A DNA stretch of 64,000 nucleotides from Candidatus Omnitrophota bacterium (GCA_016867115.1 VGKG01000004.1:6536-70535), one strand, 5' to 3'; shown: positions 13,186 to 49,098, counted from the first letter of the stretch. Made by a program: numbers and translations. Notes: a model not told the origin generated them from the letters alone.

Positions 13186-14045
13186 CTGCTCTCTCCAGCC
13201 GGATAATCCTTCCTTAAGAAGGCCTTATAGAAGTGCTTCCTTGCAAAATTGGGCATTAACCTTACTATGCTCTTCATAAAAATATTACTTAAAAATTCCG
13301 GATAACTCAGGAATCCTATGGCCAGGAACTTCTTCTGGGCCTCTATTTCATTTAATAAATACCTGAACCCGCCCCTTCTCCTGAACATGTCATCGCTGAT
13401 CCTGACCTTTGCCAGGTACTCCGGAATGTTTGCCAGCCTGCTCCCCGATTTTATCGCCCTGACCATCAGATAATAATCTTCGAATCCGAAGAGGTTCTCG
13501 TAATTTCCGGCCCTGAGGATTACATCCCTCTTGAACATGATCGTAACATGATTGACCGGCATGCGTTTTTTCGCAAAACGGACAATATCTTCATGTTCCG
13601 TGGGCAGATTTCTTCTGCCCCAGATGTTGCTTTCCTTATCCATGAACTCGAAAGCGAAAGAACCTACGATATCGATTTCACTATTATTTTCCAGAAAATC
13701 CGCCTCTTTCTTAAATCTGTCGCTGCAGCTGATATCGTCGCTGTCCATTATAGCAATAATCCCGAATTTACACCGCTCTACCCCTCGGCGCAATGCCTCG
13801 CCCCTGCCGATCTGTTTATCAAATACCAGAGCGGTGAATAAATCCGGATGGGCTTTCATAAAATATCCTAAAACCTCATCTAATTCCTTCGTCAACGGCC
13901 CGTCTTTAACGACAACTACTTGAGAGGGCATTAATGTCTGATTTATTATACTTTCCAAAGCCTCTTTGAAATATTCCGGATTCTCTTTGTCGTAGACAGT
14001 TATTAAAACAGAAAAATCTTTCATTTGTGCAATATAAGGCAACAA
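13182..14045 (-). CDS. Glycosyltransferase family 2
   Basis: 287 aa. FSVLITVYDKENPEYFKEALESIINQT ... MDSDDIS (DxD-type) is a GT2 signature. Confidence 0.75.
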   Translation of the reverse strand: MLPYIAQMKDFSVLITVYDKENPEYFKEALESIINQTLMPSQVVVVKDGPLTKELDEVLGYFMKAHPDLFTALVFDKQIGRGEALRRGVERCKFGIIAIMDSDDISCSDRFKKEADFLENNSEIDIVGSFAFEFMDKESNIWGRRNLPTEHEDIVRFAKKRMPVNHVTIMFKRDVILRAGNYENLFGFEDYYLMVRAIKSGSRLANIPEYLAKVRISDDMFRRRGGFRYLLNEIEAQKKFLAIGFLSYPEFLSNIFMKSIVRLMPNFARKHFYKAFLRKDYPAGESR

Positions 14046-14060
14046 AAAGTTAAATATATT

Positions 14061-14831
14061 CTACTGAACATTATTAACCCCTAACAGCCGGTTCCTTACA
14101 GATTCGTATCTTTCGTTTCCTATTATCCTTTTAGTGCCCTTTCTTATCTCATAGCTCAATCTGGCAAGAATTATATTAAACCAGGAAGGATCTATCCTGG
14201 ATGGCATAGTAGGGATATCAACGGCCCTGTTCATTGAATTTCTGTATAGAATCCCTTTTTGTAATTGTTTTATGCCGTTAATGCCGGGGGTTGAAGTGCA
14301 CATTATTCTATAGCCGGCCTTCTTTGCCAGGTCAATTATCCTCTTATTAAAATCGCCCTGAGGAAAAGAAAGGGCATCAATTTTTGTACCAAGCTTATCC
14401 TCGAGCAGGCAGCGGGAGGCATAAAGTTCCTCTTGCGCCTCTTCTGCCGGTAGTCTGGAAAGTATCCGGTGGCTGATTGTATGCGAGCCTATCTCCATAT
14501 TGTTATCTTTCAGCTCCCTGATCATATCCCACTGCATAAAACCGCTTTTTCCTACAAAGCTAGCTGTTATAAAGAAGCTTCCCCGAAAATCAAGCTCTTT
14601 AAGCAAAGGGAAAGCTATCTCATAATCGCTAAGTCCGCCGTCATCAAATGTAAACGTAATAGACTTATCGTGACTACTCAAAGAATTGCCGTAAAAATCT
14701 CTTAGGTTTTTTACGCTAAATGAAGAATCTTTTATCTGATTTAATAATGCCTTAAAGAAGTCTCCCGTGACTGAGTAAAAATCATGCGATGGGATACTTG
14801 TTATGTTATGAAAAAGGAGTATATTCAGCAT
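14061..14831 (-). CDS. Polysaccharide deacetylase (NodB homology domain)
   Basis: TFDDGGLSDYEIAFPLLKE ... HTISHR, typical of CE4 deacetylases. Confidence 0.7.
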   Translation of the reverse strand: MLNILLFHNITSIPSHDFYSVTGDFFKALLNQIKDSSFSVKNLRDFYGNSLSSHDKSITFTFDDGGLSDYEIAFPLLKELDFRGSFFITASFVGKSGFMQWDMIRELKDNNMEIGSHTISHRILSRLPAEEAQEELYASRCLLEDKLGTKIDALSFPQGDFNKRIIDLAKKAGYRIMCTSTPGINGIKQLQKGILYRNSMNRAVDIPTMPSRIDPSWFNIILARLSYEIRKGTKRIIGNERYESVRNRLLGVNNVQ

Positions 14832-14833
14832 TC

Positions 14834-15937
14834 TTAATTTTTCCTGCCTGCGCCGGTAAAGGCGGCCTTATTCAGGCCCTCTGCAATGTACTCCATGTGC
14901 TTCCTGGTCAAGCTATGGTTAACAGGCAAAAGCAAGAGGTTTTCATTAAAGATTTTTGTCTGTGGGTAATTATCCACGGGTACCGACACCCCCTCCTGGC
15001 CGGGCCAAATAATTGCTTCTATCCCCAGGCGGATCAATTTATCAAATACCTCTTTCCTGTCATTAACCAAAATAGGAAAAAATTGCGGGCAAGACCCGGC
15101 AGGCAAACCCGGGAAAAGAACTAAGATCCCATCCGTGTTTTTTATTAATCCAGAAAGATAGTTGTAGTTTTCTTTTCTCCGGCTAAGTGCACTTTTTAGA
15201 TAAGGATTACTAGTGTTGCCGGCTACGCGACTTTCCGTACAATATTGTGTTGCCTCTAACCCTCCGGAGAACGCCGAAGAATCGGTATTCCCGAAAAGGC
15301 TCCGGAGTGCATTCTTTACCCGTAAAATATTAATACCGGAGATAAATGCCAGCCTTTCAGCCATCATTAAAGCTTTCTTTTTGACGCCCGAATGCACCCT
15401 TGGAAAAGAAAGCAGATTATCTGTACAAGACTGGCTCTTCTCAATAACTAATCCTCCGCATGTAACCGCAAGTAGTTTCCTGAAACTGAAAATAGATATA
15501 TCCCCTGACATGCCGGCAAAACAGGTTGCATCCGCGTCAGGCAGGATATGGGCGCAATCCTCAATAAGAATAAGATTATATTTAGCACAAAGCGCCTTTA
15601 TACCTTCAAGCTCCCGTAATATACCAAAAAAGTGGACTACAAGAAGATAATCGCCTGCCGAAAATTTAAGGTTAGAAACTTGCGGCATGAATCGGTGATC
15701 TAAATCATAATATTCTATCTTTAAATTACAGCTCTGGATCGGTTTTAAAAGGCTTCTGCACATAAATGCCGGAATCCAAACGGTTTTGCCTCCTGTGCGT
15801 TTCTCTAAAACCGATTGCAATGCAGTGCGCGCACCTGGATAGATACACGATATCTCAAAAGGAAATGAACCTGCTATGTCTATAGTAGAAGGATTTCTAC
15901 CTAAAAGTGATATTGTCGGGTTGGCGGGTATGAACAT
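14834..15937 (-). CDS. PLP-dependent enzyme, DegT/DnrJ/EryC1/StrS-like (divergent)
   Basis: 367 aa. Domain order resembles DegT (…GKTVWIPAFMCRSLLKPIQSCNLKIEYYDLD … IEDCAHIL), but conservation is weak. Confidence 0.45.
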   Translation of the reverse strand: MFIPANPTISLLGRNPSTIDIAGSFPFEISCIYPGARTALQSVLEKRTGGKTVWIPAFMCRSLLKPIQSCNLKIEYYDLDHRFMPQVSNLKFSAGDYLLVVHFFGILRELEGIKALCAKYNLILIEDCAHILPDADATCFAGMSGDISIFSFRKLLAVTCGGLVIEKSQSCTDNLLSFPRVHSGVKKKALMMAERLAFISGINILRVKNALRSLFGNTDSSAFSGGLEATQYCTESRVAGNTSNPYLKSALSRRKENYNYLSGLIKNTDGILVLFPGLPAGSCPQFFPILVNDRKEVFDKLIRLGIEAIIWPGQEGVSVPVDNYPQTKIFNENLLLLPVNHSLTRKHMEYIAEGLNKAAFTGAGRKN

Positions 15938-15962
15938 TTATTCCTTATTAAATTATTGAATC

Positions 15963-17000
15963 TTAATTATGACTCGGATAATTCTTCCATTTCAGGTAAT
16001 AATTTTCATAAAAGTTCAGCGCACCTGAAAATATTCTAGAGAAACTGGCGGTAAAATATGGCTCTTTTTTATAAACTGAGCCGAAACTTGCCTTAAATCG
16101 TGAAACCCCTTCATTTTCCCTGCTACCGCCATACATATCGTATGTTTTCAAGCCCATTCCAATAAATCTTTTAATGCCTTCCCATAAAAGAAGGTTATTT
16201 ATCCTGAGCTGGCTGAATTCGGGGCTGGATGCTGAAACAAACGCATATGCTGTTTCTGTATCATATCCCCAGATATGCCCGCCTGCAAAATCACCCTTAT
16301 AAAATGCACCCAAGAAAAGCAATTGGCCGCGGGTGGCGATTGCATCATACAGATAACCCAGGCGTTCATACCTGAAAGGAACAGTCATCTTCTTTTTCTT
16401 ATATGTTTGAGTGACAAGTTCATAAAGAGGCCTGAAAAACGCTCTATCCTTCAGTTCCTTTATCTCTATCCCGCTTTTGTAGGCATTTTTTATGTTCTTT
16501 TTACAATTATAATGGAGCTTCTCCCATTGCCTGTCTTCATTTTCTTCCAGCTCCAATATCCAGGTTTCCCGGTATCTTATTGAAAATCCAGCAGAACGCA
16601 TGATCTCTTCATCGAGCAGAGCCCCTGAGGTTTCAAAGTACGCGACCTTCTCTTTCCGGCATAATCTTTTTACATCCGCGATCAATTCGCGCTTAGCATT
16701 ACCGTCCAAAGGCTCCCTAAATAATAACGGGCCCATCCTTGAAGTCAGCCATCCTCTCAAAGGGCTGCCTAAAAGACGAAACGGTCCCTTTCTTACCGTT
16801 ATGAACGGCCAGTATCCGCAAATCTCGTCGTTGATTTTTATGGAATAGACATGAAGTGCACCCTTATGCTCTCTGCAGATAAAATCCAACCAGGGCAATG
16901 AATGAAAAAGCAAAGACTTAGAGTGAATTTTAACCCAATCTGTATATTGGGCTATCTGTTTGTCGTCGTCCAAATTTACTGCAGATATAGTTTTAAACAA
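15963..17000 (-). CDS. FemAB-family/GNAT-like acyl(aminoacyl)transferase
   Basis: 345 aa. Two-lobed layout with GNAT-like segments (…FLGAFYKGDFAGGHIWGYD… NLLLWEGIKRFIGMGLKTYDMYG) resembling FemAB or BioF2-like N-acyltransferases. Confidence 0.45.
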   Translation of the reverse strand: MFKTISAVNLDDDKQIAQYTDWVKIHSKSLLFHSLPWLDFICREHKGALHVYSIKINDEICGYWPFITVRKGPFRLLGSPLRGWLTSRMGPLLFREPLDGNAKRELIADVKRLCRKEKVAYFETSGALLDEEIMRSAGFSIRYRETWILELEENEDRQWEKLHYNCKKNIKNAYKSGIEIKELKDRAFFRPLYELVTQTYKKKKMTVPFRYERLGYLYDAIATRGQLLFLGAFYKGDFAGGHIWGYDTETAYAFVSASSPEFSQLRINNLLLWEGIKRFIGMGLKTYDMYGGSRENEGVSRFKASFGSVYKKEPYFTASFSRIFSGALNFYENYYLKWKNYPSHN

Positions 17001-17991: not shown

Positions 17992-19461
17992 TTATAAACC
18001 TTTCTGCGCGGCCACCTCGAGCTTATATCCAGGCGCAATCGCAAGTTTAATAAGCCAAAGAATAAATACCGCCATGAAAAATGCTTTTACTGATTCCACA
18101 ATATCTCCCCCGAGGAAAAGCTGGATCACCAGATGCTGAAAAAATAAAACCTTTAGAACTAAGCTGATATTAGATCTCATCACAATAACTGAAATCATTC
18201 CCCATAAGAAAACTACAAAAAAAGCGAAATAACCGAAAAGCAGGTAAGTGACGCCTAAAAAAGTCGGTAATTCAGTGACTTTGCTTATCTCTTCCCGGGG
18301 CAATTTCCATACAACCGTTGTATATTTCTGTAACATATTCGGTTTATCCGGAAACAGATTTGGGACGGGAATCAATCTTCTGGCGGCATCTTCACCTAAC
18401 GATGATGGATTAACACACCCCCTTAGTTCGTCTTTTTTATCCTCTGACACTGCTACGGCAAGCCAATCGACCCCCCCTAGCCTACTGGAGTTAGCTATTA
18501 AGTCATCGATATAGCCCTGGCTGGCTTTTTTAAATATCCTGCTGAACTGGTCCATTGATTTAACTCCAAGAATAATACTTGTTCTCACGCTAACGCTAAG
18601 CGGAGCCATTACCGGGAACGTAAGCATAATAATCAGGACTAGTGCCAATGTCTTTTTCTTGAATGTGTAGTTCTCAAGCATTATTTTCACAACAAAGTAG
18701 CTGAGTGCTATAGATATGACCGCGGCTTTACTCCCCTGGGAAAGCGAGGTAAGCATTAATAAGGCAAAAATAATTAAAATTGTAATATTCTCTTTAGTTT
18801 TCCTTCTTATATCCGGGTGTAACAGAATAATAAAAATAATCAATTGAACGAAATTGAAATAGAACAATAAATGCAGGACCAATTTCATAACGAAGCTCTG
18901 GGTAATCCTTGTGTTTAAAAGCGCTCCTTCGGCCGTATGCTGATAATAAACTGACATTATAATCCTTATAAGATAAACACATAGGCTTACTATGTAAAAC
19001 TTCATCCTGCTTGATTCAGAATACATCCATTTAGGCAGCCATTTGCTTTCTTTACTATTTCCTTTCTTTAAGGGGATAAATTCCCCGGCCTTAAAACCTA
19101 TGAAAACGGCGATTGTGCAGATCAGCAGATAAAGAAGGGCGGTATTAATATCGCTTGTAGTATAATTTACGGTCCGGGCATACCTTATGGATTCCGGGAA
19201 AATATACAAAAAAACGATCCTTTGCGCATAAAAAATAAGGCTTAACAGAAAAAATATGTAGACCGCAACCTTTGTGCTTCCTTTATAAAGATACAGACTT
19301 ATTATTAAGAGAACGAAGTATATGGATGACAACAGAATAGCATTTCCCTTAATGAGTATCCGGTAAGATTCCGGTAAGTTCGGAGCCAATAATAATACGT
19401 AAAGAAAAATAAGCGATCCAAGAAGTATATTACGGATATGTATTCCGGCCTCTTCTTTCAT
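17992..19461 (-). CDS. Polytopic membrane protein, putative O-antigen/oligosaccharide polymerase (Wzy-like)
   Basis: About 490 aa with at least 10 TM helices, AT-rich. Start chosen at the internal MKEEAGIH, which gives a 4-nt ATGA overlap with the upstream GT2. The track ORF extends to 19527. Confidence 0.45.
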   Translation of the reverse strand: MKEEAGIHIRNILLGSLIFLYVLLLAPNLPESYRILIKGNAILLSSIYFVLLIISLYLYKGSTKVAVYIFFLLSLIFYAQRIVFLYIFPESIRYARTVNYTTSDINTALLYLLICTIAVFIGFKAGEFIPLKKGNSKESKWLPKWMYSESSRMKFYIVSLCVYLIRIIMSVYYQHTAEGALLNTRITQSFVMKLVLHLLFYFNFVQLIIFIILLHPDIRRKTKENITILIIFALLMLTSLSQGSKAAVISIALSYFVVKIMLENYTFKKKTLALVLIIMLTFPVMAPLSVSVRTSIILGVKSMDQFSRIFKKASQGYIDDLIANSSRLGGVDWLAVAVSEDKKDELRGCVNPSSLGEDAARRLIPVPNLFPDKPNMLQKYTTVVWKLPREEISKVTELPTFLGVTYLLFGYFAFFVVFLWGMISVIVMRSNISLVLKVLFFQHLVIQLFLGGDIVESVKAFFMAVFILWLIKLAIAPGYKLEVAAQKGL

Positions 19462-20309
19462 ACCTGAAATACCCTCGGTAGAATGGTTAGCAGCCTGAAG
19501 AACATGTCTAATCTTGCGGCCCGGCATGAACGGTAGGCTGCTCCGGCAAAGATCCTCGCCCTTCTTCTTATCATCAGAAATTTATAATAGGGCGTCTTTT
19601 GCTCCCAATACTTAAAATGAGAATTAACCACATTTATGGTATTTTCTGCATGCCTGACTATATTGTTTGTAATAGAGCTGCTCTGGATCGTGTATTCCCC
19701 GAGTATCTCATGTAAATATTCTATCCTGCATATCTTAGAGAGCCTCAGCCACAGTTCATAATCTTCGACGCCGTTAAAATCCATATTTTCCGAGAATAAA
19801 CCTGCCTCGAAAAGCTTATTCCTTCGCACAATCACTGCTGATGTCGATATGCAATTTCTTCTAAAAAGCAGGTCCGGATAATCCCTGAACGGCCCGTAAA
19901 TAAGCTTTGAGATAACCCTGCCATCCTTTACCAGATATTCGTTATGGCAGATCAGATCCGCATCTCTGTGGACTTGGATATAATTATTAACATTCGCCAG
20001 CTTTTCGCTGGCCCATTTATCATCTGCGTCTAAAAAAGCGACGAAATCGCCTTCGGCTTCTCTGACGGCGCAGTTTCTTGCCCCGCCGATCCCCTTATTC
20101 TTTTGCCTTATTAACTTATATTGCGCACCCGGAAGATTCTTAAAATAATTTTCGATTACCGCGGAAGTGTTATCCGTTGAGCCGTCATCGGTAATGACCA
20201 CCTCGTAATTCCCGTAGGTCTGCTTCCGCACGGAATCTAATGTCCTGCCGATATATTTTTCAGCATTATATGCGGGGATGACCACGCTAAATTTAATATT
20301 TTCTCTCAT
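19458..20309 (-). CDS. Glycosyltransferase family 2
   Basis: FSVVIPAYNAEKYIGRTLDSVRKQT ... DADD signature. Confidence 0.75.
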   Translation of the reverse strand: MRENIKFSVVIPAYNAEKYIGRTLDSVRKQTYGNYEVVITDDGSTDNTSAVIENYFKNLPGAQYKLIRQKNKGIGGARNCAVREAEGDFVAFLDADDKWASEKLANVNNYIQVHRDADLICHNEYLVKDGRVISKLIYGPFRDYPDLLFRRNCISTSAVIVRRNKLFEAGLFSENMDFNGVEDYELWLRLSKICRIEYLHEILGEYTIQSSSITNNIVRHAENTINVVNSHFKYWEQKTPYYKFLMIRRRARIFAGAAYRSCRAARLDMFFRLLTILPRVFQV

Positions 20310-22185
20310 CTTCTATCTTTTTCAACGATTCGGCGATCCTTTCAGATGAGCGGCCGTCTGCCTTGAAAAAACATTGCCGCTCAATGAAGCTCTTTGTCGT
20401 TTCAGTGGGGTGAAATTGATGGGGATTGCTGGCGAAATTTTCTAATCCCTTTCTTAATTCTAAGACCGAGTAAAACTTCGGGATTTCCACTTCTAAATCA
20501 CGAAAGACAGAAGCATTGTAGCCTGCCGTAAGCCACTGAAATATAGGGGCGCCCTGCAGTAAAGCCTCTTCCGCCACCGTAGAGTAAGTGAATATTACCA
20601 GATCCGCCATCTTAAGGTTCTCATCGAGCGTCCCTTTTGTTGATATAATCTTATGCCGGTAAGGGCGGTATTCCCGTAAATCCTCCATTCTCGCAAACGG
20701 ATGACTTCTGATATAAAGCTTTATATTCTTAAGGCCCTCGGCGGCGGCGCTGGCTGCCTGGACCATTTCAAAATCATGCCGGGGATTCAGAGTGGCTACA
20801 AGCAGCACGTTATAAATTTCCTTATCCTGCCTGTTTTCCTGCCGGGCTGAGATCCTAATATTTTCATGCCTCGGAGAACCGGTAAGCAATATTCTTTCCT
20901 GCGAAAATCCGTCTTCTATGAAGATATCTCTCCCTAATTCGCCCATAGCAAACATGTAATCAGGTACCGGGACGCTACGATTATCAGGCTTACCGTACAG
21001 CTCTCTTTCACGGTCGAGCGCAAGGAAAGTCTTTTCTCTGTTATAACTGGCATGCTGGATCGTACAATGAATTGCTTCCGGCCTTGCGGAGCGGCCTCCT
21101 TCATACAATGCCCTTGAATGCGGATAAAATTCTAAGAAAGTAAAGTTTATCTTCGGCCCGTACTCTACAAAAGCCCTGCGGCTTGAAGATTCTATGAGCG
21201 TAAAAAGCGGAATTGTAGAACTAACAAAATCGCATATCAGAAGATGGTTTAAGAACGGAAAAAAATCTAATCCTTCTTCGGTAAAAAGATCCCTGAATGA
21301 ACTTAAACGTCTAAATCTCAGGTACCGGTATAGAGGCCGAAAATCCAAAGCGGCAAACAGGACGTCTTTTAAGCTAAGAAATTTTTGCAAAAATATAAGT
21401 TGCGGGTGCCCTTTTACGCGGCTCAGGATCTGTTTCAGGGAACGTTTCTTTGCTCCCGGCTTATGAATCGGTGAAAGCCATAAAAGCCATGCATGCGTAA
21501 AGCCTTTCAATTTTAATTGCCCGGGGAGGGATTTAAAATAAATATCGTTTAGTGACTCTGCGTCATCACCGGGACAAACGCTCCAATCCCAAAATCCCTG
21601 AAAGAGGACATCAGGCCTTGACTTTGGCAGATCGGCAAATACTTTCAATGCAAAAAGAGCGGATAAAGTATCAAAAATCAATTTCATCCGAGAGAAAGCC
21701 CCCTTGGCCAAGGCAAGGAGTCTAATAAAATATCTTTTTATGCTCTTTCGGATGCGGTAGCGGCTGGAAAGCGCCTCTCTGATCTCGCAGGGGGCGCCGT
21801 ATAGAACGATATCTTTTATGTTTTGCCGTTTAGCCACATTCAAAATAGTGAAAACTTGCAGCATCACGTTAAAAGTAGGGTCGCTTTCTACATCCTTAAA
21901 ACTAAACTTGGTATACCACCAGGGATTGCCTCTTCCCGGAAACTCAAGTGCCTGCCTTAGGGTCCTTCCGTTACAGGCTGTTGCGCTGATGCGCGCAACC
22001 ATATCTATGTAGGCAAGACGCGCCTTTTCCCTTACCGCATTCATTTCTTTCCTGCCCAAAAGAACCTCGCCTCTGTAAGAGCTTGTAAACTTATATTCAG
22101 CTTCCGGCGTTAAGAAACTTAGTACCGTAGCATCCGGAGGGATTATCCGCGAGTCGAGTTTATAAACAATATGGAGACTGGACAT
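20293..22185 (-). CDS. Uncharacterised large glycan-locus protein (possible GT-B-like surface carbohydrate biosynthesis protein)
   Basis: 630 aa with no confidently recognisable family. The C-terminal part (…NVLLVATLNPRHD…LVIFTYSTVAEEALLQGAPIFQW) resembles the C-terminal Rossmann half of TagF/KpsS/Maf-type transferases. Coding status is well supported by length and context. Confidence 0.55.
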   Translation of the reverse strand: MSSLHIVYKLDSRIIPPDATVLSFLTPEAEYKFTSSYRGEVLLGRKEMNAVREKARLAYIDMVARISATACNGRTLRQALEFPGRGNPWWYTKFSFKDVESDPTFNVMLQVFTILNVAKRQNIKDIVLYGAPCEIREALSSRYRIRKSIKRYFIRLLALAKGAFSRMKLIFDTLSALFALKVFADLPKSRPDVLFQGFWDWSVCPGDDAESLNDIYFKSLPGQLKLKGFTHAWLLWLSPIHKPGAKKRSLKQILSRVKGHPQLIFLQKFLSLKDVLFAALDFRPLYRYLRFRRLSSFRDLFTEEGLDFFPFLNHLLICDFVSSTIPLFTLIESSSRRAFVEYGPKINFTFLEFYPHSRALYEGGRSARPEAIHCTIQHASYNREKTFLALDRERELYGKPDNRSVPVPDYMFAMGELGRDIFIEDGFSQERILLTGSPRHENIRISARQENRQDKEIYNVLLVATLNPRHDFEMVQAASAAAEGLKNIKLYIRSHPFARMEDLREYRPYRHKIISTKGTLDENLKMADLVIFTYSTVAEEALLQGAPIFQWLTAGYNASVFRDLEVEIPKFYSVLELRKGLENFASNPHQFHPTETTKSFIERQCFFKADGRSSERIAESLKKIEDERKY

Positions 22186-22190
22186 ATGAC

Positions 22191-22949
22191 TTATATAAGA
22201 AAAGGATTTGATGCGGAAACATTTAAAGTGAGTTCATCCCGCGAAGGGGTAAACTCTATGGCTCCGCCTGCAGCTTTTACCAATGCAAGGCCGCCTGCCG
22301 CATCCCATATCTTTATGTCGTTCTCATGATAGAAGTCGGCCCTTCCGCATGAGACATATGCCAGAGATAACGCTGCCGAACCGAGCAGGCGCACCTTTTT
22401 AAAGGTCCTTATATCTTCTATGGCTTTAAGCACTGAGTCTTTGGAGAAATCGGTGCCGGCCGGAAATCCCGTACACAAAACTGCCTTATGTTTATCCACC
22501 ACCATGCTTACGCCTATAGGTTCGCCATTTAGCCAGGCGCCGGCTCCGACAATGCCGCTAAAGGCCTCGCCTCTGTTAAAATCGTAGACTACCCCGAGTA
22601 TGGGCTCCATGCCTTTCCAGAGGCCGATAGAAATACAGGATAGCGGTATGCCGCGGGAAAAATTGAGGCTTCCGTCAAGAGGGTCAACGATCCATCTCGG
22701 ATCTTTCTCCTGTGATGTTCCCTGTAAAAAACCCTTCTCTTCAGAAATAATAGAGTATCCGGATTTCAGCTTAAGGCGCTCTATGATAGAATCTTCAAGT
22801 TTTTTATCCGCCTCTACCTTGACGTCTCTGTCCATGTCTAAAGTAACTGCTTTTGTATCTTCTGTCGTTTTCAGGATATCCCGGGCGGCATTCCTTGCCG
22901 CATCTTGAGCCAAAGACAATAAACTCTCCAAATCAGCGCGTTGCATCAT
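22191..22949 (-). CDS. Inositol monophosphatase family phosphatase (SuhB/CysQ-like)
   Basis: WIVDPLDGSLNFSRGIPLSCISIGL and the C-terminal WDAAGG motif. Confidence 0.8.
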   Translation of the reverse strand: MMQRADLESLLSLAQDAARNAARDILKTTEDTKAVTLDMDRDVKVEADKKLEDSIIERLKLKSGYSIISEEKGFLQGTSQEKDPRWIVDPLDGSLNFSRGIPLSCISIGLWKGMEPILGVVYDFNRGEAFSGIVGAGAWLNGEPIGVSMVVDKHKAVLCTGFPAGTDFSKDSVLKAIEDIRTFKKVRLLGSAALSLAYVSCGRADFYHENDIKIWDAAGGLALVKAAGGAIEFTPSRDELTLNVSASNPFLI

Positions 22950-23872
22950 AATATCTTCCTTAGTGCTTCAATAAGGTTGTCCACTGCCTCCATCTCCATA
23001 TTACGCCGGCACTCCGAAGTATAGGAACCGATGTGCGGCGTTAATATGACCTGCTTATATTTAAGTAAGGCACCGGAATATGGCTCACTCTGAAAAGTAT
23101 CCAGCCACGCCCCTGCCACCCGCCCACTGTCAAGCGCAGCTATAAGCGCGCCTTCATCAATCAGTCCACCCCTTGCGGCATTTAATATATAAACGCCGTC
23201 TTTCATAAGGTCGAATTGGCTTTTACCAAGCAAGCACTTTTCGCCGCTGCAGTGCAGAGTGATGACATCTGCGGCTTTAAGGGCATCGTCCAGATCTACA
23301 ACGGGAAAACCGCTGACTTTCCCTGAATACGCGGGGTCAACAGCGTAAATATCAGCCCCAAAGGCATTCAGCAATTGAGCGACCCTCTGTCCGATATTGC
23401 CGAATCCGATAACGGCAACATTCATTCCGTTAAGTTGCCTGCCGATTATCTTAAACCACTTATTATTATGAAGCGACGCATCCATCTGGCGGATATGGCG
23501 TAAGATACTCAATAGACATCCGACAGTAAGTTCTGCGACTGCTTCGATAGGAGCAGTTGGTGTATTCTTGACGGTAACCCCGAATTCCTTTGCTGCATCA
23601 AGGTCTACGTTTGAAAGCCCTGAGCCGCATCTTGAGATCACCTTCAATTCTGAATTCTTCAAAACATCCCTATCCAAAGGCTCAAGCCCGGCTATGATCC
23701 CACTCACCCCCGGTAATAAGTTAATCAACTCATCTTTCGTCAGTCTACGCTTAAAAGGATTTTCCACGACCTCAAACCCCATGCCTAATAGCTTTAACAA
23801 GGGGTCTTTATCCTCTTCCGAGAAAGTCGAAGTTCCTAACAATATTTTGATTTTAGATTTTCTTTCCGTCAT
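22946..23872 (-). CDS. D-isomer-specific 2-hydroxyacid dehydrogenase (PGDH-like)
   Basis: NVAVIGFGNIGQRVAQLL NAD-binding site and a catalytic-domain pattern. Confidence 0.8.
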   Translation of the reverse strand: MTERKSKIKILLGTSTFSEEDKDPLLKLLGMGFEVVENPFKRRLTKDELINLLPGVSGIIAGLEPLDRDVLKNSELKVISRCGSGLSNVDLDAAKEFGVTVKNTPTAPIEAVAELTVGCLLSILRHIRQMDASLHNNKWFKIIGRQLNGMNVAVIGFGNIGQRVAQLLNAFGADIYAVDPAYSGKVSGFPVVDLDDALKAADVITLHCSGEKCLLGKSQFDLMKDGVYILNAARGGLIDEGALIAALDSGRVAGAWLDTFQSEPYSGALLKYKQVILTPHIGSYTSECRRNMEMEAVDNLIEALRKIL

Positions 23873-23877
23873 ATTCT

Positions 23878-24663
23878 TTACTTGCTTAATTGTGGGTCTT
23901 TAAAGAGCATGTAAGTTCCCGGAGATTTATTGTCATAGGTGTTTTCAAGAACCCGTTCCTTTGCCTTGACAAGGGCAAATGGCGACATCCACTCTTTATA
24001 GATACTGACGGGCCTGGCCCGGCTTATAAATTTATCCGCATCAGTTGCGTTCCCGGTAACTTTTATAGACTCTGTCTTTTCTATAAGTAAGATGTAGCCT
24101 CGCGGGGCGAGTTTCTTTATCTCCTCAATGACGCTGCGGCAGAACTCATCAGGAAGATGCTGAAGCACTGTGCAAATCAAAGCAAAGTCAAAGATCCCTT
24201 TACCCATCTGGCTTATCCGGTCTAGCGTATCGCATTGATAGAATTCAATATCGGGAAGGAGCGTTTTTGCTACATCCACAAGGTGTGCCTCTCTTTCAAA
24301 GCCGACCACCCTGTCGGCAAATTCTTTAAGCACCATTATCAAGCGGCCGTAACCGCAACCTACTTCGCAAGCAGACCGGATGCGGGCCTCGGGGAGAACT
24401 TCGCGCATTATTGAACGGATCGTCTTTCTCTCCAGATAATTTCTCACATTATCCGTAGGCCCTGAAACATCGCTTACCCCGGCAGCAGTCCAGACAATGC
24501 GCGCATTACGGTCTCTCCATTTACCCCATAACTTCCGTCTGACTTTAATAATTACGGCTTTTGCCAGATACCCGAACGGGAGAGCCGTGGCATCGGGCAA
24601 TAATAACTCCTTTTTCTTAAAGAACTTGATTTCATTTTGATTCATGCAAAGACACCTCCGCAC
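23878..24663 (-). CDS. Class I SAM-dependent methyltransferase
   Basis: EVGCGYGRLIMVL motif I. 261 aa. Confidence 0.65.
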   Translation of the reverse strand: MRRCLCMNQNEIKFFKKKELLLPDATALPFGYLAKAVIIKVRRKLWGKWRDRNARIVWTAAGVSDVSGPTDNVRNYLERKTIRSIMREVLPEARIRSACEVGCGYGRLIMVLKEFADRVVGFEREAHLVDVAKTLLPDIEFYQCDTLDRISQMGKGIFDFALICTVLQHLPDEFCRSVIEEIKKLAPRGYILLIEKTESIKVTGNATDADKFISRARPVSIYKEWMSPFALVKAKERVLENTYDNKSPGTYMLFKDPQLSK

Positions 24664-25294
24664 TTTTTGCCTTATATTGAAGCCAGTTGGCGATCAAGTG
24701 GTCTAAGACCACATGGATATCTTCTACCGGGCCGTATTCGCCTTTCGGGGTATTTACATGTACCACCACGTCAGAGATGTTTTTAAGCTTCCCCCCGTCA
24801 AAACCGATGAAACTGATCACTCTGCCTCCTGCCGCCTTTATCCATTCTGCGGCTTCGATGATATTCGGCGAATTCCCGCTTGCCGAGATAGCTATCAATT
24901 TATCACCCGGGCGGTAATGAATCTTAAGCTGGTTGACAAATATATTGTTGTAACCGTCGTCATTTGCAATCGCAGTCATCAAAGCAGCATTGCCTGACAG
25001 GGCAAGCGCCCGGAAAGGAGTTTTGATCCCGGCCTTCTTTAACACGTCCATGCCGATATCATTGGCCATGTGCGAGGCAGTGGTCGCAGATCCGCCGTTT
25101 CCCGCAAGAAATATGGTATTTCCATTTTTCTGTGCGTTTTCAAGCTCTTTAACAGCATCTGCGATCGCCTTCGTGTCAAGCTGGCCGAGCAGGGTTGAAA
25201 GGTAATTTAGGTAGCCCCTGGCAAACTGCTCTACGTTTTTAGACTCGTTAAAAGTTCTTTCTATATTATTCATGTTCCCTCCCCGATATTCCAT
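24632..25294 (-). CDS. SIS-domain sugar-phosphate isomerase, GmhA-like (sedoheptulose-7-phosphate isomerase family)
   Basis: FLAGNGGSATTASHMANDI and ISASGNSPNIIEAAEWIKAAGGRVISF. 220 aa. Confidence 0.75.
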   Translation of the reverse strand: MEYRGGNMNNIERTFNESKNVEQFARGYLNYLSTLLGQLDTKAIADAVKELENAQKNGNTIFLAGNGGSATTASHMANDIGMDVLKKAGIKTPFRALALSGNAALMTAIANDDGYNNIFVNQLKIHYRPGDKLIAISASGNSPNIIEAAEWIKAAGGRVISFIGFDGGKLKNISDVVVHVNTPKGEYGPVEDIHVVLDHLIANWLQYKAKSAEVSLHESK

Positions 25295-25295
25295 T

Positions 25296-26333
25296 TTAGT
25301 CAGGACAATCTATGTTATAAGCTTCTCGCCAGTCCCTGTCCGCATAATATATCTTATAAACAAGCCTCATTGTATCCAGTGCGTCGGTGCTCGTTCCGGA
25401 TTTAATTTTAGTGCCATTGACAATAGCATCCGTAAATTCATTTATTTCATCCCGCCATGAATTATCCTCGACATAAGTCTTGGTATCTTCATCGAATGCG
25501 CCAGTATCCGATTCATCGCGTCTGCCGACTGTGAGTTTTTCCTCGCCATAACTTTTTGAGCCCGACAAAATGCCGCTAAGCTGGATAAAGCCCTCAGTTA
25601 AGCTTATATCCAGGTGAAATCTGTGCTGCCACTGCGTTGCGCTTGAATGCAGGAACGCGATCCGCCCCTTCTTATCCCGCATCAGCGCATATGCATTATC
25701 CTCAACATCGTGATCCCAGTAGCTGTTGGATACATAGCTCTTGACCTCTTCAAACTCGCCACAGAAAAGCCGCATCAGGTCTACCATATGTATTCCCTGG
25801 TCAAGGAGTATTCCGCCTCCGGAATATCTACGCTCTGCCCTCCAGCCGCCTGAAAACGGAATGATCTTGCTTTTGCCGTAAACTCCACTGAGATTTATAA
25901 TTTCGCCTAATTGTCCCGACTTTATGATCTTCAGGGCATCGCGCACAGAATCGTGGTAGCGATGGTTAAAGCCGTACTTTAATAACAGTTTGGGATGCTT
26001 CTTCTCTGTCTCGATTACTTTTTTAATGTCTTCCACATCCCGTCCCGGCGGCTTCTCGCAAAAAACATGCAATCCTCTTTCAAGGCCGGCGATGGTAACC
26101 TCTGCGGCAAGATAATTCGGCAGACTTACAAATAATATGTCCAACGGCTCTTCCAGCAACTTGAGGTAATTGGGGAAAAAACCTACTCCTTCAGGCATAA
26201 TGCCGGATTCCTTAAAATTCTTGTCGCAGACGGCAACGGTTTTCAAGAAGGGATTTAGATCGATAAACTGCCTTCGTCTTTTGCCTACTACGCCATAACC
26301 GGCAATTCCGACTCTTAATAACTTTTTCTTCAC
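25296..26333 (-). CDS. Gfo/Idh/MocA family oxidoreductase
   Basis: LRVGIAGYGVVGKRR N-terminal Rossmann. 345 aa. Confidence 0.8.
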   Translation of the reverse strand: MKKKLLRVGIAGYGVVGKRRRQFIDLNPFLKTVAVCDKNFKESGIMPEGVGFFPNYLKLLEEPLDILFVSLPNYLAAEVTIAGLERGLHVFCEKPPGRDVEDIKKVIETEKKHPKLLLKYGFNHRYHDSVRDALKIIKSGQLGEIINLSGVYGKSKIIPFSGGWRAERRYSGGGILLDQGIHMVDLMRLFCGEFEEVKSYVSNSYWDHDVEDNAYALMRDKKGRIAFLHSSATQWQHRFHLDISLTEGFIQLSGILSGSKSYGEEKLTVGRRDESDTGAFDEDTKTYVEDNSWRDEINEFTDAIVNGTKIKSGTSTDALDTMRLVYKIYYADRDWREAYNIDCPD

Positions 26334-26350: not shown

Positions 26351-27127
26351 TTATTTCTTGATATACAAAGGCATAAGATCATCGTTTTTCATCAAGCCCC
26401 TGACCCTTTCCAGGTCTTGCGGCGTATCCACTCCCACCGCCTGAGAAGACGTCAAAACCGCCCTTATCTTGTATCCATGTTCAATTGCTCGCAGCATATC
26501 CACGGATTCTACTATCTCAAGCGGCGTTTGAGGCAGCTTTGAAAAAAGGAGTAGAAAGTCTTTACGAAAAGCGATGATCCCCAGTTGCTTGTATCTTTTA
26601 TAAGGCAGCCCGGAAGCCTTGTGTACTGAAGGAATGGGTTCCCGTGAAAAATATATGACGTTATTATCGGTATCGCAGACTGTCTTAACTACATTGCTGC
26701 TATTGAACTCTTCATCGCTATTTATCTCGGAGATCAGATTGGTGCAGGTAATCCCCGGCTCGTTTAGCAGGGGGGCGACTACGGAATCTAGCATCTCGGG
26801 CCTTACCATCGGCTCATCGCCCTGGACATTGATTACGATATCTGCTTCGACTGAAAGAGATGCCTCTATAATCCTGTCTGTGCAGCGCTGATGCGACGGA
26901 GAGGTCATTACCGCCTTACCGCCGCCAGCCTTTACTGCATCGAATATTTCCCGGTCGCAGGTAGCCACAATAACCCCGCTTACAGAACGGGTAAGGGCCA
27001 CCCTCTTTCTGATATGTTCGATCATGGGTAGACCATGTATATCAAAAAGAGGTTTCCCGGGAAACCTGGTTGAACCCATACGTGCCGGTATGATCGCAAT
27101 AACTTTCATCTTATTTTTTGCGGGCAA
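26351..27127 (-). CDS. KdsB-family cytidylyltransferase (CMP-3-deoxy-ulosonate synthetase-like)
   Basis: MKVIAIIPARMGSTRFPGKPLFDIHGLPMIEHIRKRV is the KdsB-type N-terminus (ARxxSTRxPGKPL). 258 aa. Confidence 0.75.
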   Translation of the reverse strand: MPAKNKMKVIAIIPARMGSTRFPGKPLFDIHGLPMIEHIRKRVALTRSVSGVIVATCDREIFDAVKAGGGKAVMTSPSHQRCTDRIIEASLSVEADIVINVQGDEPMVRPEMLDSVVAPLLNEPGITCTNLISEINSDEEFNSSNVVKTVCDTDNNVIYFSREPIPSVHKASGLPYKRYKQLGIIAFRKDFLLLFSKLPQTPLEIVESVDMLRAIEHGYKIRAVLTSSQAVGVDTPQDLERVRGLMKNDDLMPLYIKK

Positions 27128-28094
27128 GGACCCTCATATGTGAACTGAGATTATTCCTCCTGATCCAATCCTGTAATTCATCCTTTGCTTCGCTTTTACC
27201 TTTTCTGGCAAACGTCTCCCAGAATTTCCCTAACTTTATACTATCATTAACTATCGCTCCCTCTACAATATCCCAATCCAGTTGTCCGGGCGTTTCGATC
27301 TTAACCGCCTCAAACCCTTCTCTGGTCAAAAGATGCCTGATTGATCCGGGGTTAAAGAAATTTATATGGCAGGGCGGATAAATCGCCTTTGAATCCTCCC
27401 AGAGGATCCGGATATCAAAACCCTCTCCATTTAAGGTAGTCAGAAAAAGCCAGCCGCCCTTTTTAAGAAGGCGATAGACCGAAGAAAGAAAGACCGAAGG
27501 GTCATATAAATGCTCGAATAGCTCGAATGCCGTCAACAGGTTGAAACTATTATCATAACCTTTAAGCTCTTCTAAAGTGGAGCATTCTGCCTTTAAATCC
27601 AGCTTCCCGCAAAGTTCTGCCTGTTCAAGCGAAGGCTCGATAGCAATATAGCTGCTCTGTCCCCAGAGTTTATGCAGCTCATCAAGAAAAAGGCCAAACC
27701 CTGCGCCGATATCTCCGATCTGCCAGGCCGGATCTTTACCGAAATATTCTGTGATGAACTCCGCCCGGGGCCTGAAGATTTTCTCTCTTCTTGCCTCGGC
27801 AACCGGCATAAAAAACTCTTTTACCCAAAAATCAGTTGAGGCGGACCGACCATAAAACTCTTTTAAACTATCGAATGAGAGCCTGGTCTTTGCATACAGA
27901 GTTGAGCAGTTAAGGCAAGTCACGTATTCAAAACAGCTCTTCTTAAACTCAAGGATATGCTTATCTTCCTGGCAAGCAGGGCACTTTACCTTAACTAATG
28001 CTTTTTTGCTATTCAAGAAGGCCTTGCAGTCTTCCTGGACCAGCTTAAGGTAAAGTTTTAACTTATCTTTATCCCGGATATCCTTCTCTTTCAA
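27111..28094 (-). CDS. Class I SAM-dependent methyltransferase with N-terminal Cys4 zinc-ribbon (putative sugar C/O-methyltransferase)
   Basis: CPACQ…CLNCS ribbon, then IGAGFGLFLDEL motif I and KKGGWLFLTT. Confidence 0.6.
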   Translation of the reverse strand: MKEKDIRDKDKLKLYLKLVQEDCKAFLNSKKALVKVKCPACQEDKHILEFKKSCFEYVTCLNCSTLYAKTRLSFDSLKEFYGRSASTDFWVKEFFMPVAEARREKIFRPRAEFITEYFGKDPAWQIGDIGAGFGLFLDELHKLWGQSSYIAIEPSLEQAELCGKLDLKAECSTLEELKGYDNSFNLLTAFELFEHLYDPSVFLSSVYRLLKKGGWLFLTTLNGEGFDIRILWEDSKAIYPPCHINFFNPGSIRHLLTREGFEAVKIETPGQLDWDIVEGAIVNDSIKLGKFWETFARKGKSEAKDELQDWIRRNNLSSHMRVLARKK

Positions 28095-28098
28095 AAAA

Positions 28099-28881
28099 CT
28101 ATCCTTTCTTATTGACCAAAGCTTTGACCTCGCTCAGTCCGCCCCGGCACATCTCACCGAGAAACATAAAATCAACGCTATAGCCGATGAATCTATAGCC
28201 TGCATTTATCTTCTCTTTCACCAGCTTAGGGTCAGGAGGCACAATATGACAGCCGGCAGTAACCTCCAGATTAGAGGAAATTTTCTGTATCTGCTTCATC
28301 GCCTCGATAAAACTAGGATGTGAAAACTCACCCGGCACCCCCAATGAACCGGAAAGGTCGTAAGGCCCGATAATGAAAGCATCTATCCCCTTAACCGTGA
28401 GTATACTCTTAAGGTTTTCAACCGCTTTAATATGCTCTATTTGGACAATAACCATACTGTTAGCATCAGCCCATTTCCTGTATTCATCGAACTTTGTCCC
28501 GTAACCTTGTGCCCGGTAAAGCCCGACTCCCCTTGTCCCTTTAGGCGGATATTTTACGGCATTAACCGCCTTTTCAGCGTCTTCCCTTGTGTTTACCATG
28601 GGCACAATAACGCCATGTGCACCCAAATCCATCACCCTTTTTATAAGATTCGGGTTATTTTCTCCTACGCGCACTAAAGGGACGACTCCGCATAACTCGA
28701 TTACTTGTATAAGACTTTGCGCTTCGGAAAGGGTTATTGCCGAATGCTCCATATCAACGGTCAGCCAGTCAAAACCCGCTCTCGCCATGATCTCAGCAAC
28801 GGCAGGATGACCCAGCGTGACCCACGAACCGAAAGTTAACTTTTTATTTTTTATCTTTTCTTTTAAACTAGTTGCTGCCAT
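28099..28881 (-). CDS. HpcH/HpaI-family (class II, pyruvate-dependent) aldolase / citrate-lyase-beta-like
   Basis: AVAEIMARAGFDWLTVDMEHS…VRVGENNPNLIKRVMDLGAHGVIVPMV pattern. 260 aa. Confidence 0.75.
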   Translation of the reverse strand: MAATSLKEKIKNKKLTFGSWVTLGHPAVAEIMARAGFDWLTVDMEHSAITLSEAQSLIQVIELCGVVPLVRVGENNPNLIKRVMDLGAHGVIVPMVNTREDAEKAVNAVKYPPKGTRGVGLYRAQGYGTKFDEYRKWADANSMVIVQIEHIKAVENLKSILTVKGIDAFIIGPYDLSGSLGVPGEFSHPSFIEAMKQIQKISSNLEVTAGCHIVPPDPKLVKEKINAGYRFIGYSVDFMFLGEMCRGGLSEVKALVNKKG

Positions 28882-29716: not shown

Positions 29717-30379
29717 CTATGGTAAATTCCGTATTATTTTAGCCGGTACCCCGCCTGCCAGGACATTGGCGGGTATATCTTTTGTTACCACGCTTCCGGC
29801 TGCGATCACGCTATTGTCTCCAATAGTGACCCCTTTAAGGACCATGCAACGGTTTCCTATCCAAACATTTTTGCCTATAATCACATCTGAATCATTTTCA
29901 ATAGCAGGATTGCTTATTCTATTTTCAGGAGGCCATAGCGGATGACCGTCTAAATCCATTATCAATACATTCGGAGCGATAACCGTTCCCTTCCCGACTA
30001 AAATCGTCTTTGATCTTGCAATAATCGAGGTGCCGTTTAAGCCTACATTATCTTCAATGATTATCCTGGCTGTCTTTGTAAGCGTCTTAAGCTTTGTTGG
30101 CGCAAAAATTGAGCCTGTACTGCTCCTTAATGACGATGATACATTCTGTAGATTACTGCCGATTGTTATCTGGCTCTTGGGAGCGCGCATTAGGTGTATT
30201 GGCCCGTAACTTACCGCCCCCTGGCCGAGCTTTATCCCAAAGATAAAAGATTTCACCCCTAGCATAAACGTACCCGTAAACCCGGAGTATGCCTTCTGGA
30301 CAAGGATGTATGTGTAACTGAAAAAGTCTGCCGGGCTGCTTAATAGTTCCGTTATCTTCTTTATCTTAGGATTGATCAT
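29717..30379 (-). CDS. Hexapeptide-repeat (left-handed beta-helix) acetyltransferase, PglD/NeuD/WbbJ-like
   Basis: [50 protein letters not shown]. Confidence 0.75.
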
Positions 30380-47015: not shown

Positions 47016-48080
<1,065 letters not shown>

Positions 48081-49097: not shown

Positions 49098-49098
49098 C

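Follow-up and report, generated by a model that had tools for sequence, protein, structure and literature searches.

A divergent GT-B-fold protein of an Omnitrophota glycan operon as a candidate glycosyltransferase for a CMP-activated Kdo-like ulosonic acid

The window analysed here is a 64,000-nucleotide (nt) stretch of Candidatus Omnitrophota DNA (GCA_016867115.1, VGKG01000004.1:6536-70535), and the gene under study, the target, lies at 20293..22185 on its minus strand as an uninterrupted open reading frame (ORF) with an ATG start, encoding 630 amino acid residues. The start stands 5 nt past the TAA of an upstream gene for a phosphatase of the inositol-monophosphatase (IMPase) family, and the final 17 nt overlap the ATG of a downstream gene for a GT2 glycosyltransferase; an earlier note on this DNA had reported translational coupling of the ORF into a glycan operon, and it was found as described. 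Intergenic distances are only -70 to +17 nt across eleven genes, from that of an HpcH aldolase (28881) to that of a 511-residue membrane protein (17992), which places the target mid-way in one operon; the gaps between the target and a module with a KdsB-type cytidylyltransferase are -32 to +17 nt. The protein, net basic and without a transmembrane segment, is a divergent member of a widespread, uncharacterised GT-B family. [quoted passage not shown]

Pfam returned nothing meaningful for the target. The sole model aligning to it over nearly the full length is TIGR04326 (O_ant_LIC13510, the NCBIfam 'surface carbohydrate biosynthesis protein'; E 7e-15, 54.3 bits), with residues 47-583 on model positions 19-576 of 602. 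The C-terminal part (residues ~463-628) is also matched by TIGR04396 and by NF046086 ('BFO_1060 family glycosyltransferase'), the latter with residues 463-624 on model positions 196-363 of 365. A search of 5.8 billion proteins yielded 45 full-length homologues of 610-652 residues and 32-100% identity, all from metagenomes or metagenome-assembled genomes (MAGs), none with a Pfam domain and two annotated by the Joint Genome Institute (JGI) as 'TIGR04326 family'. Among 1.84 billion cluster representatives searched with the profile, 6,723 were related at E<=1e-3, and 256 of these at E<=1e-30. All 44 aligned members match TIGR04326 (best E 2e-30), 37 match TIGR04396 and 30 match the BFO_1060 model (best E 7e-13). 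Farther full-length relatives (660-686 residues) score 81-142 bits on TIGR04326, under its cutoff, and the scores printed for family members, 54-142 bits, are all sub-threshold. By its sequence the target is homologous to TIGR04326 and stands outside the curated family, whose model spans only a small part of a much larger one. The description of the protein as an orphan is thus superseded by a near-full-length model match, the 45 homologues and the 6,723 cluster representatives. Membership of TIGR04326 says nothing on mechanism, since TIGR04326 itself is without known function, and the literature search found no mention of TIGR04326, TIGR04396, LIC13510 or TIGR04331.

The AlphaFold2 model of the target, built on a 44-sequence alignment, has a mean predicted local distance difference test score (pLDDT) of 92.9 and a predicted template modelling score (pTM) of 0.92, with no disordered segment. 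A Foldseek search against the Protein Data Bank (PDB) gave 201 matches at E<=1e-3, of which the best 50, to which the statements on match identity refer, are GT-B-fold proteins at ~12% identity. Among the matches listed, TarL (8va1), TagF (3l7j) and Cps3D (8qoy) give the longest alignments (456-528 columns), and GT1- and GT4-type enzymes are also present. The GT-B fold, defined by two Rossmann-like domains, a linker and a C-terminal helix crossing back, is borne out by the confident model and by these matches, which have a target-normalised template modelling (TM) score of 0.5-0.6 over ~460-530 columns. The earlier note had suspected a GT-B/TagF/Maf-like nucleotide-binding half at the C-terminus; the comparison with GT-B folds that it had proposed confirms a TagF-related GT-B half, extends it to a complete GT-B fold and leaves the Maf part without a signature. 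A likeness to Maf/PseE or KpsS was likewise not borne out, as the MptE-like model PF01973 (DUF115; Maf/PseE) finds neither the target nor any of the 44 relatives, the KpsC/KpsS model Capsule_synth PF05159 finds nothing in the target at E<=10 or among the 44 relatives at E<=1, and the fold is GT-B and not Maf-like.

The order of secondary structures points to three domains: residues 1-185 make up an additional alpha/beta domain, ~193-434 the GT-B N domain and ~458-630 the GT-B C domain. The first closes with a long, partly hydrophobic helix (152-183) and holds the invariant residues Y59, R77, L80, W89, W90 and R166, W89 being retained in all 34 relatives at 19-31% identity. These invariant residues make it likely, as far as conservation can tell, that the domain is part of the functional site and not an appendage. 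When the N-terminal 190 residues were modelled alone (pLDDT 87.3), no significant fold match was obtained in the PDB (best E 0.058, TM <0.4). JGI lists the identical protein as P0001, of 588 residues, with its start set at an internal TTG (Leu43); residues 1-42 are conserved among the homologues (L22, S23, F24, P27 and E30 at >=90%) and are modelled at pLDDT 82-96, so that the 630-residue start is the correct one. The GT-B N domain ends in a conserved LLTGSPR motif (20869-20889), and LTGSPR(H/Y)(D/E) is common to the target family and to P0187, the only new protein that the family profile brought in when a second word-indexed search for homologues was made.

To place the nucleotide-binding half, the family profile was aligned by hhalign, each time under the same conditions, with one sequence from each of three possible relatives. 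The BFO_1060-like P0187, which matches NF046086 at E 3e-25, aligned with 97.3% probability (E 2.5e-11, residues 406-622). A TagF-family protein of a related locus (L009), a genuine Glyphos_transf protein (Pfam E 8e-48), aligned with 91.2% probability (E 1e-6), limited to the C-terminal 220 residues with the N-terminal half unaligned. The E. coli epimerase WecB gave 4% (E 0.01); in this low-confidence alignment a single catalytic acid coincides, E352 being aligned to D95 of WecB. With 97% and 91% against 4% for WecB, a remote homology comparison of the kind suggested by the earlier note comes out on the side of transferases: the nucleotide-binding half is closest in sequence to enzymes with a CMP leaving group, and P0187 bridges the target family and the BFO_1060 family. 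As for Pfam models of such relatives, Epimerase_2 PF02350 reaches E 0.29 and 10 bits on the target against a cutoff of 30.6, Glyphos_transf PF04464 finds nothing in the target and weakly matches 3 of the 44 relatives (best E 0.0037), and the sialyltransferase models PF07922, PF11477 and PF07388 (GT52/GT80/GT38) match neither the target at E<=10 nor the relatives.

Conserved residues of the C-terminal domain point in the same direction. H495 and P496 of the '(K/R)XHP' motif are invariant in 44/44 close homologues, and the relatives at 19-31% identity all carry R or K at position 493 (34/34), with H495 and P496 retained in 30/34 and 33/34 of them, respectively. S535-T536-x-x-E539-E540 is invariant or nearly so in close homologues, with S535, T536 and E540 retained in 32, 30 and 31 of the 34 distant relatives. 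Crystal structures of the Kdo transferase KrkA (GT140) have the CMP phosphate bound by the His of (K/R)XHP together with Ser271/Ser272, and the ribose by Glu276 (PMC12887879). The spacing of S535-T536...E540 equals that of KrkA Ser271/Ser272...Glu276, and these residues are aligned with DYS...D of the TagF-family protein and GST...D of P0187. The HP motif, common to GT99, GT107 and GT140 (PMC12887879), is the one by which CMP-ulosonic-acid transferases are recognised (GT38, 52, 80, 99, 107, 118, 140), and the target has it. In the GT-B N domain, Q377-H378 is invariant in 44/44 close homologues, and His and Gln are found in 33/34 and 31/34 distant relatives; Q377-H378, D214 and D401 would be the best candidates for the chemistry.

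Thirty related loci were gathered, including by a scan of one genome per species of the Genome Taxonomy Database (GTDB), and 25 of them (numbered with L below) are distinct, all from MAGs of Planctomycetota, Omnitrophota, Thermodesulfobacteriota/Deltaproteobacteria, Acidobacteria, Nitrospira, Nitrospinales, Elusimicrobiota, Opitutaceae and Zetaproteobacteria. Co-occurrence was taken as best-hit homologues of window proteins near the target homologue. A KdsB-type gene is found there in 19 of the 25 loci, which are all 19 with >=6.7 kb of upstream DNA; the six others have <=1.8 kb. The gene in the window scores 318 bits on NF009905 (cutoff 255) and 174 bits on the kdsB equivalog TIGR00466 (cutoff 155). 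The target homologue sits after the KdsB-type gene, and gene order and strand are conserved across loci, so that neighbourhood conservation, which the earlier note had named as a check, is evident wherever enough upstream DNA exists. A NeuB homologue is present in only 2/25 loci, a NeuA-like one in 3/25 and one of the LIC12162 family in 1/25. With 19/19 against 2/25, the target family is linked to a KdsB-type activation module and not to NeuB.

The remaining module genes accompany the target homologue less regularly. The 2-hydroxyacid dehydrogenase is the tightest-linked, in 16/25 loci and within 3 kb in 15; it may make hydroxypyruvate or glycerate, or interconvert a 2-hydroxy/2-keto sugar acid. 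Homologues of the GT2 enzyme occur in 15/25 loci, the Gfo/Idh/MocA oxidoreductase in 11/25 (orthologues at 61-76% identity) and the SIS isomerase in 8/25, always <=3 kb from the target homologue. The IMPase is found in 5/25, a HAD or Hydrolase_3 phosphatase standing in its place in L001, L002 and L008, and the methyltransferases of 27111-28094 and 23878-24663 occur in 5/25 and in 4 loci (orthologues at 51-58% identity), respectively. For the module proteins of the window, the highest similarity (64-74% identity) is with proteins from one Thermodesulfobacteriota MAG and one Nitrospinales MAG. In two Planctomycetota loci, L002 (6829-8562) and L007 (5554-7296), a 577-581-residue HMGL-like protein, a pyruvate aldolase/carboxyltransferase TIM barrel, replaces HpcH directly upstream of the KdsB-type gene; a precomputed annotation adds a weak MptE-like (Maf-type) domain to the protein of L002.

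Table 1. Coordinates of the target, its domains and predicted site residues, and other genes of the island, in nucleotides of the window
Feature	Position	Strand	Basis
Target: three-domain GT-B protein, candidate CMP-ulosonic-acid (Kdo-like) glycosyltransferase	20293..22185	-	ORF, NCBIfam, homologues, AlphaFold2, Foldseek
N-terminal alpha/beta domain, residues 1-185, family-specific	21631..22185	-	secondary structure, separate model
GT-B N-terminal Rossmann-like domain, residues ~193-434, helical insertion ~266-342	20884..21609	-	secondary structure, Foldseek alignments of 450-530 columns
Q377-H378, strand end of GT-B N domain, candidate for catalytic base or for contact with the donor sugar	21052..21057	-	conservation
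GT-B C-terminal nucleotide-binding Rossmann domain, residues 458-630	20296..20814	-	NF046086, TIGR04396, hhalign
R493-S-H495-P496, '(K/R)XHP' motif, predicted CMP phosphate binding	20698..20709	-	conservation; PMC12887879, PMC5420450
S535-T536-V-A-E539-E540, predicted phosphate (Ser/Thr) and ribose (Glu) contacts	20566..20583	-	conservation, KrkA spacing
HpcH/HpaI-family class II pyruvate aldolase, predicted C-C bond-forming step	28099..28881	-	Pfam PF03328, E 4e-37
S-adenosylmethionine (SAM)-dependent methyltransferase, between aldolase and KdsB-type genes	27111..28094	-	Pfam
KdsB-type cytidylyltransferase (CMP-Kdo synthetase type), predicted donor maker for the target	26351..27127	-	NCBIfam
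Gfo/Idh/MocA oxidoreductase	25296..26333	-	Pfam
SIS-domain (GmhA-like) sugar-phosphate isomerase	24632..25294	-	Pfam, NCBIfam
SAM-dependent methyltransferase within the module	23878..24663	-	Pfam
D-2-hydroxyacid dehydrogenase, phosphoglycerate dehydrogenase (PGDH)-like	22946..23872	-	Pfam, NCBIfam
IMPase-family sugar phosphatase, directly upstream of the target	22191..22949	-	Pfam PF00459, E 2e-47
GT2 glycosyltransferase, start overlapping the target stop by 17 nt	19458..20309	-	Pfam PF00535, E 1e-36
NeuB-type block: DegT, PseG-like, NeuB, WbqC, radical SAM, NeuA-like CTP_transf_3 (42394-43041), PIG-L, 4,6-dehydratase, second DegT	~37.7-45.6 kb	-	

The fold, the motif conservation, the family relationships and the gene linkage are direct observations, and from them we infer the donor, the roles of residues and the acceptor. 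The target would be a soluble or peripheral cytoplasmic GT-B glycosyltransferase whose C-terminal Rossmann domain binds the CMP of an activated 2-ulosonic acid, H495 and S535/T536 contacting the phosphate and E540 the ribose. The GT-B N domain and the family-specific N-terminal domain would position sugar and acceptor through Q377-H378, D214, D401, R77, W89-W90 and R166, and the sugar would pass from CMP, which is released, to the repeat unit of a Wzy-type surface polysaccharide as this unit grows, probably on undecaprenyl diphosphate. The donor is predicted to be made by the same operon, which would amount to a Kdo pathway assembled from non-orthologous parts: the SIS isomerase as counterpart of KdsD/KpsF, the HpcH pyruvate aldolase of KdsA, the IMPase-family phosphatase of KdsC and the KdsB-type cytidylyltransferase of KdsB/KpsU, with tailoring presumably done by the two oxidoreductases and the methyltransferases. 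Because the operon resembles the Kdo pathway and the family keeps a KdsB-type partner and few NeuB neighbours, the donor is best read as Kdo or a modified Kdo-like ulosonic acid and not as a NeuB-derived nonulosonic acid. Of the sugar-installing role proposed earlier, a GT-B transferase with a CMP-sugar donor is thus supported, and the nonulosonic nature of that sugar is not. The assignment of the target as the transferase of the module is favoured by the fact that, without it, synthesis and activation steps would be left with no CMP-sugar transferase. The accompanying GT2, a GT-A enzyme, is of a type not known to use CMP-ulosonic acids.

Several observations weigh against this reading. The target scores far under the curated cutoffs of the family models, with 54 bits on TIGR04326 against 250 and 28.4 bits on NF046086 against 200, the latter match being confined to the C-terminal domain. 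The HP and S...E motifs are also found in TagF-like enzymes and some epimerases, and are therefore no proof of a CMP-sugar donor. A second defining motif of retaining Kdo transferases, the QXXXD of the C-domain that supplies the nucleophilic Asp and a carboxylate-binding Gln (PMC12887879), is absent from the target family, in which the only well-conserved C-domain Asp, D528, lies in L-x-x-A-D without Gln at -4; the target is thus not a GT99, GT107 or GT140 enzyme, and other residues would serve its chemistry. The top Foldseek ranks are taken by uridine diphosphate N-acetylglucosamine (UDP-GlcNAc) 2-epimerases (best E 2e-10, target-normalised TM ~0.6), and the only sequence match in the PDB, by phmmer and profile searches, is the epimerase CapG at E 0.12. 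The HpcH aldolase is found in only 9/25 loci, and the 2-hydroxyacid dehydrogenase, for all its tight linkage, is without an obvious role in a Kdo-like pathway. No biochemistry on any member of TIGR04326 or of the target clade was found in the literature searched.

The window itself holds a second ulosonic-acid pathway, the NeuB-type block at ~37.7-45.6 kb with its own CTP_transf_3 gene, and the target might instead transfer the nonulosonic acid, pseudaminic (Pse)- or legionaminic (Leg)-like, made by its NeuB, PseG-like, DegT and NeuA-like genes. Homology ties the C-terminal domain to the BFO_1060 family, characterised members of which transfer Pse or Leg derivatives (PMC5420450): BFO_1060 is the strain 92A2 orthologue of Tannerella forsythia Tanf_01245/TFUB4_00887, and knock-out of either gene removes the terminal Pse or Leg derivative from the O-glycan (PMC5420450). 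The link to ulosonic-acid transferases drawn in the earlier note was thus a good lead, as this family holds validated Pse/Leg transferases (PMC5420450). NeuB and NeuA-like genes, however, are as rare near target homologues as given above while the KdsB-type partner is constant, and the target is operonic with the KdsB-type module, the NeuB block lying >15 kb upstream, with its NeuB genes at a distance of 17 kb, and nearer to another candidate, the transferase of the LIC12162 family at 31908-33656 (-). On balance a nonulosonic donor is unlikely.

The protein at 31908-33656 had been thought to fit no named family, an assignment corrected by its 399 bits on TIGR04331 (LIC12162 family of transferases; cutoff 225); it has no Pfam match, and genes for a carbamoyltransferase and a methyltransferase lie between it and the NeuB block. 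It lies closer to that block than the target does, which makes it the stronger of the two candidates for the role of nonulosonic acid transferase in this island. Its gene is overlapped by 40 nt by that of a 523-residue polytopic membrane protein (30376-31947, -) with ~9-10 hydrophobic segments and no Pfam or NCBIfam match, the true orphan of the island, which could be a flippase, a polymerase or ligase-like.

Release of CMP would also be expected if the target were a TagF/TagB-like phosphotransferase, moving an alditol- or acid-phosphate from a CDP (cytidine diphosphate)-linked donor to form a phosphodiester substituent or a teichoic-acid-like polymer. This is suggested by the long Foldseek alignments with TarL, TagF and Cps3D, by the hhalign match to a Glyphos_transf protein, in which HPF and YS are aligned, by the three family members weakly matching PF04464, and by the description of the Tannerella enzymes as TagB-like (PMC5420450). 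Yet the conserved neighbourhood has no genes for CDP-glycerol or CDP-ribitol synthesis (TagD, TarI and TarJ types), and the linked cytidylyltransferase is of the KdsB type, which makes CMP-sugar acids and not CDP-alcohols. In L009, moreover, a separate, genuine Glyphos_transf gene stands beside the target homologue, and the alignment with TagF-family proteins does not extend to the N-terminal half, leaving a phosphotransferase very unlikely.

The epimerases that lead the Foldseek ranking raise the prospect of a GT-B-fold nucleotide-sugar 2-epimerase or hydrolase (NeuC, LegG or PseG-like) freeing the aldose that HpcH would join to pyruvate, which would also accord with the CapG profile match, the weak PF02350 hits of 20/44 members (best E 0.009) and the resemblance of LTGSPR to the (V/I)TGN motif of epimerases; this is hardly probable, as the profile comparison gave only 4% for WecB against 97% and 91% for transferases, the target co-occurs with the KdsB-type gene far more than with the aldolase, and the conserved module would be left with no transferase for its CMP-sugar.

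Two further ideas were discarded. A CDP- or CMP-glycerate donor, considered as an explanation of the PGDH-like linkage, conflicts with the kdsB equivalog cutoff being passed, and a CMP-hydroxyacid with its single phosphate would be an implausible phosphotransfer donor. The trio of KdsB-like, Gfo and SIS genes was compared with PtmB/PtmA/PtmF of Campylobacter (legionaminic acid), in which PtmF is an oxidoreductase, PtmA a 254-residue protein and no SIS enzyme is present.

The glycan island around the target (~8000-47000) lies wholly on the minus strand, with a G+C content of 39-50%, mostly 40-48%, against 49-55% in the flanks. It encodes >=9 SAM methyltransferases, a carbamoyltransferase and a radical SAM/SPASM enzyme, as well as Wzy_C, Wzz, a PglC-type initiating transferase, a PglF-like dehydratase and polytopic membrane proteins. 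The low G+C, the single strand and the many tailoring genes point to a heavily tailored glycan and possibly to horizontal acquisition. The 511-residue polytopic membrane protein at the end of the operon (17992-19527, -) has no Pfam match, its gene overlaps the GT2 gene by 70 nt, and L015 has a weak homologue (22% identity) at the corresponding place; the protein may be an enzyme of Wzy-like or ArnT-like type. Just outside the island, two tandem paralogues (331 and 342 residues) of galactose-1-phosphate uridylyltransferase/DUF4921/DUF4931 type lie at 48102-50127 (-), adjoined by a glyceraldehyde-3-phosphate dehydrogenase (GAPDH) gene at 47016-48065.

Other genes recur around the target homologues. 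A second conserved block often follows them (12238-17000, -, in the window; also L002, L004, L007, L009, L014, L016, L023 and L025), comprising an NAD-dependent epimerase/dehydratase, a GT2 enzyme, a Polysacc_deac_1 deacetylase, a divergent DegT-like protein and a FemAB/Acetyltransf_6-like protein, and a PMT_2 membrane glycosyltransferase is encoded nearby in L001 and L004. This block resembles the Arn system (aminoarabinose, undecaprenyl-phosphate-sugar), and by that analogy the same glycan may be decorated. A 640-700-residue fusion of GT2 and zinc alcohol dehydrogenase (ADH_N/ADH_zinc_N) lies between the 2-hydroxyacid dehydrogenase and the target homologue in L004 (8086-10008) and L016 (6867-8972), for which the domains are confirmed; a 696-residue ORF holds that position in L025 (7788-9932). 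In the Omnitrophota locus L001 (1-1424), an aminotransferase gene adjoins one for an Fe-dependent alcohol dehydrogenase, <10 kb from the target homologue. In Shewanella, this combination of enzymes, KdnA and KdnB, converts Kdo to 8-amino-Kdo, and by analogy the pair would be in keeping with a donor derived from Kdo.

There are few transferases for Kdo, for sialic-acid-like and for other ulosonic acids; they are hard to predict from sequence and wanted for glycoengineering, and new families of them, GT118 and GT140, have still been founded in 2024-2026 (PMC12887879). The present analysis gives a functional hypothesis with named residues for a family of 6,723 cluster representatives known only as 'surface carbohydrate biosynthesis protein', and draws attention to a conserved operon by which a Kdo-type sugar may be made via a pyruvate aldolase instead of a phosphoenolpyruvate (PEP)-dependent synthase, in phyla with essentially unstudied envelopes. 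Literature searches found no paper pairing an HpcH aldolase with a cytidylyltransferase or a surface-glycan cluster. Recent mass spectrometry shows that bacteria do contain unknown ulosonic acids in CMP-activated form (bioRxiv 10.64898/2026.04.20.719630), which makes it useful to have candidate gene sets. A more far-reaching proposal is offered tentatively, as a possibility that is itself doubtful: the target and several thousand relatives would form a new family at the level of CAZy (GT-B, a unique N-terminal domain, HP without QXXXD), widespread in the envelopes of Omnitrophota, Planctomycetota, Elusimicrobiota, Nitrospirota and Acidobacteriota. It would install an undescribed CMP-ulosonic acid made without PEP, KdsA or NeuB, in which an HpcH/HMGL-type aldolase condenses pyruvate with an aldose from the GmhA-like isomerase and phosphatase, and two dehydrogenases and O-methyltransferases tailor the product; if the isomerase makes a heptose phosphate, this could be a higher-carbon (C10) ulosonic acid. 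Should the donor simply be CMP-Kdo, the outcome is more modest, namely one more mechanistically distinct family of Kdo transferases.

The kind of enzyme proposed, a GT-B transferase for a CMP-ulosonic acid, is already known, and the family itself is uncharacterised; with a unique N-terminal domain and no Pfam model, it falls outside every characterised ulosonic-acid transferase family tested. Its nearest named relative over the full length, TIGR04326, was defined from Leptospira O-antigen loci, and the target aligns to this model nearly end to end at a sub-threshold score. With the retaining beta-Kdo transferases GT99 (WbbB), GT107 (KpsC) and GT140 (KrkA) the target shares (K/R)XHP and the Ser/Ser...Glu pattern, and unlike them it has neither QXXXD nor a Capsule_synth match. 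These three families have a 'highly modified GT-B' fold, in which the N-terminal Rossmann domain is reduced and displaced by an alpha-helical subdomain (PMC12887879). The best 50 of the 201 Foldseek matches are all proteins with a canonical GT-B fold, and WbbB, KpsC and KrkA are absent from these 50. The target resembles the sialyltransferases of GT38, GT52 and GT80 in its GT-B fold, its C-domain HP motif and its predicted CMP-ulosonic donor (motifs: PMC5420450). It differs from them in having no match to their Pfam models and in its acidic pair, E-E-A, which stands in the C-domain past the HP motif. In PmST1, the catalytic D/E-D/E-G is located in the N-domain.

TagF, TarL and Cps3D, CDP-alditol phosphotransferase polymerases that are multi-domain GT-B enzymes of 560-720 residues and release CMP, are the proteins with the longest structural alignments, with C-domain homology at 91% probability and HP(F) and (D/T)YS aligned; the missing PF04464 match, the unaligned N-terminal half and the linked CMP-sugar-acid pathway set the target apart. 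Region 1/3 of the group 2 capsule loci of E. coli encodes CMP-Kdo-dependent, GT-B-derived transferases along with an SIS isomerase and a KdsB paralogue dedicated to them (PMC12887879). The target operon, in which an SIS isomerase and a KdsB-type enzyme accompany a GT-B-type protein with a CMP-binding signature, is similar to that KpsF-KpsU-KpsC-KpsS set, from which it differs in an aldolase of the HpcH type and not KdsA and in a GmhA-like SIS protein without CBS domains. The Tannerella enzymes of ~445 residues are shorter than the 630-residue target, whose N-terminal 460 residues, including the extra domain of 185 residues, have no counterpart in the BFO_1060 model, and the linked pathway of the target is of the KdsB type and not Pse/Leg. 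The Tannerella transferases carry the sialyltransferase motifs 'HP' and 'D/E-D/E-G' and are TagB/GT-B-like (PMC5420450). The target is like them in its homologous C-domain, its HP motif followed by an acidic pair, its TagB/GT-B-like character and its predicted solubility, and it is likewise encoded beside a CMP-ulosonic-acid pathway, predicted here and described there (PMC5420450).

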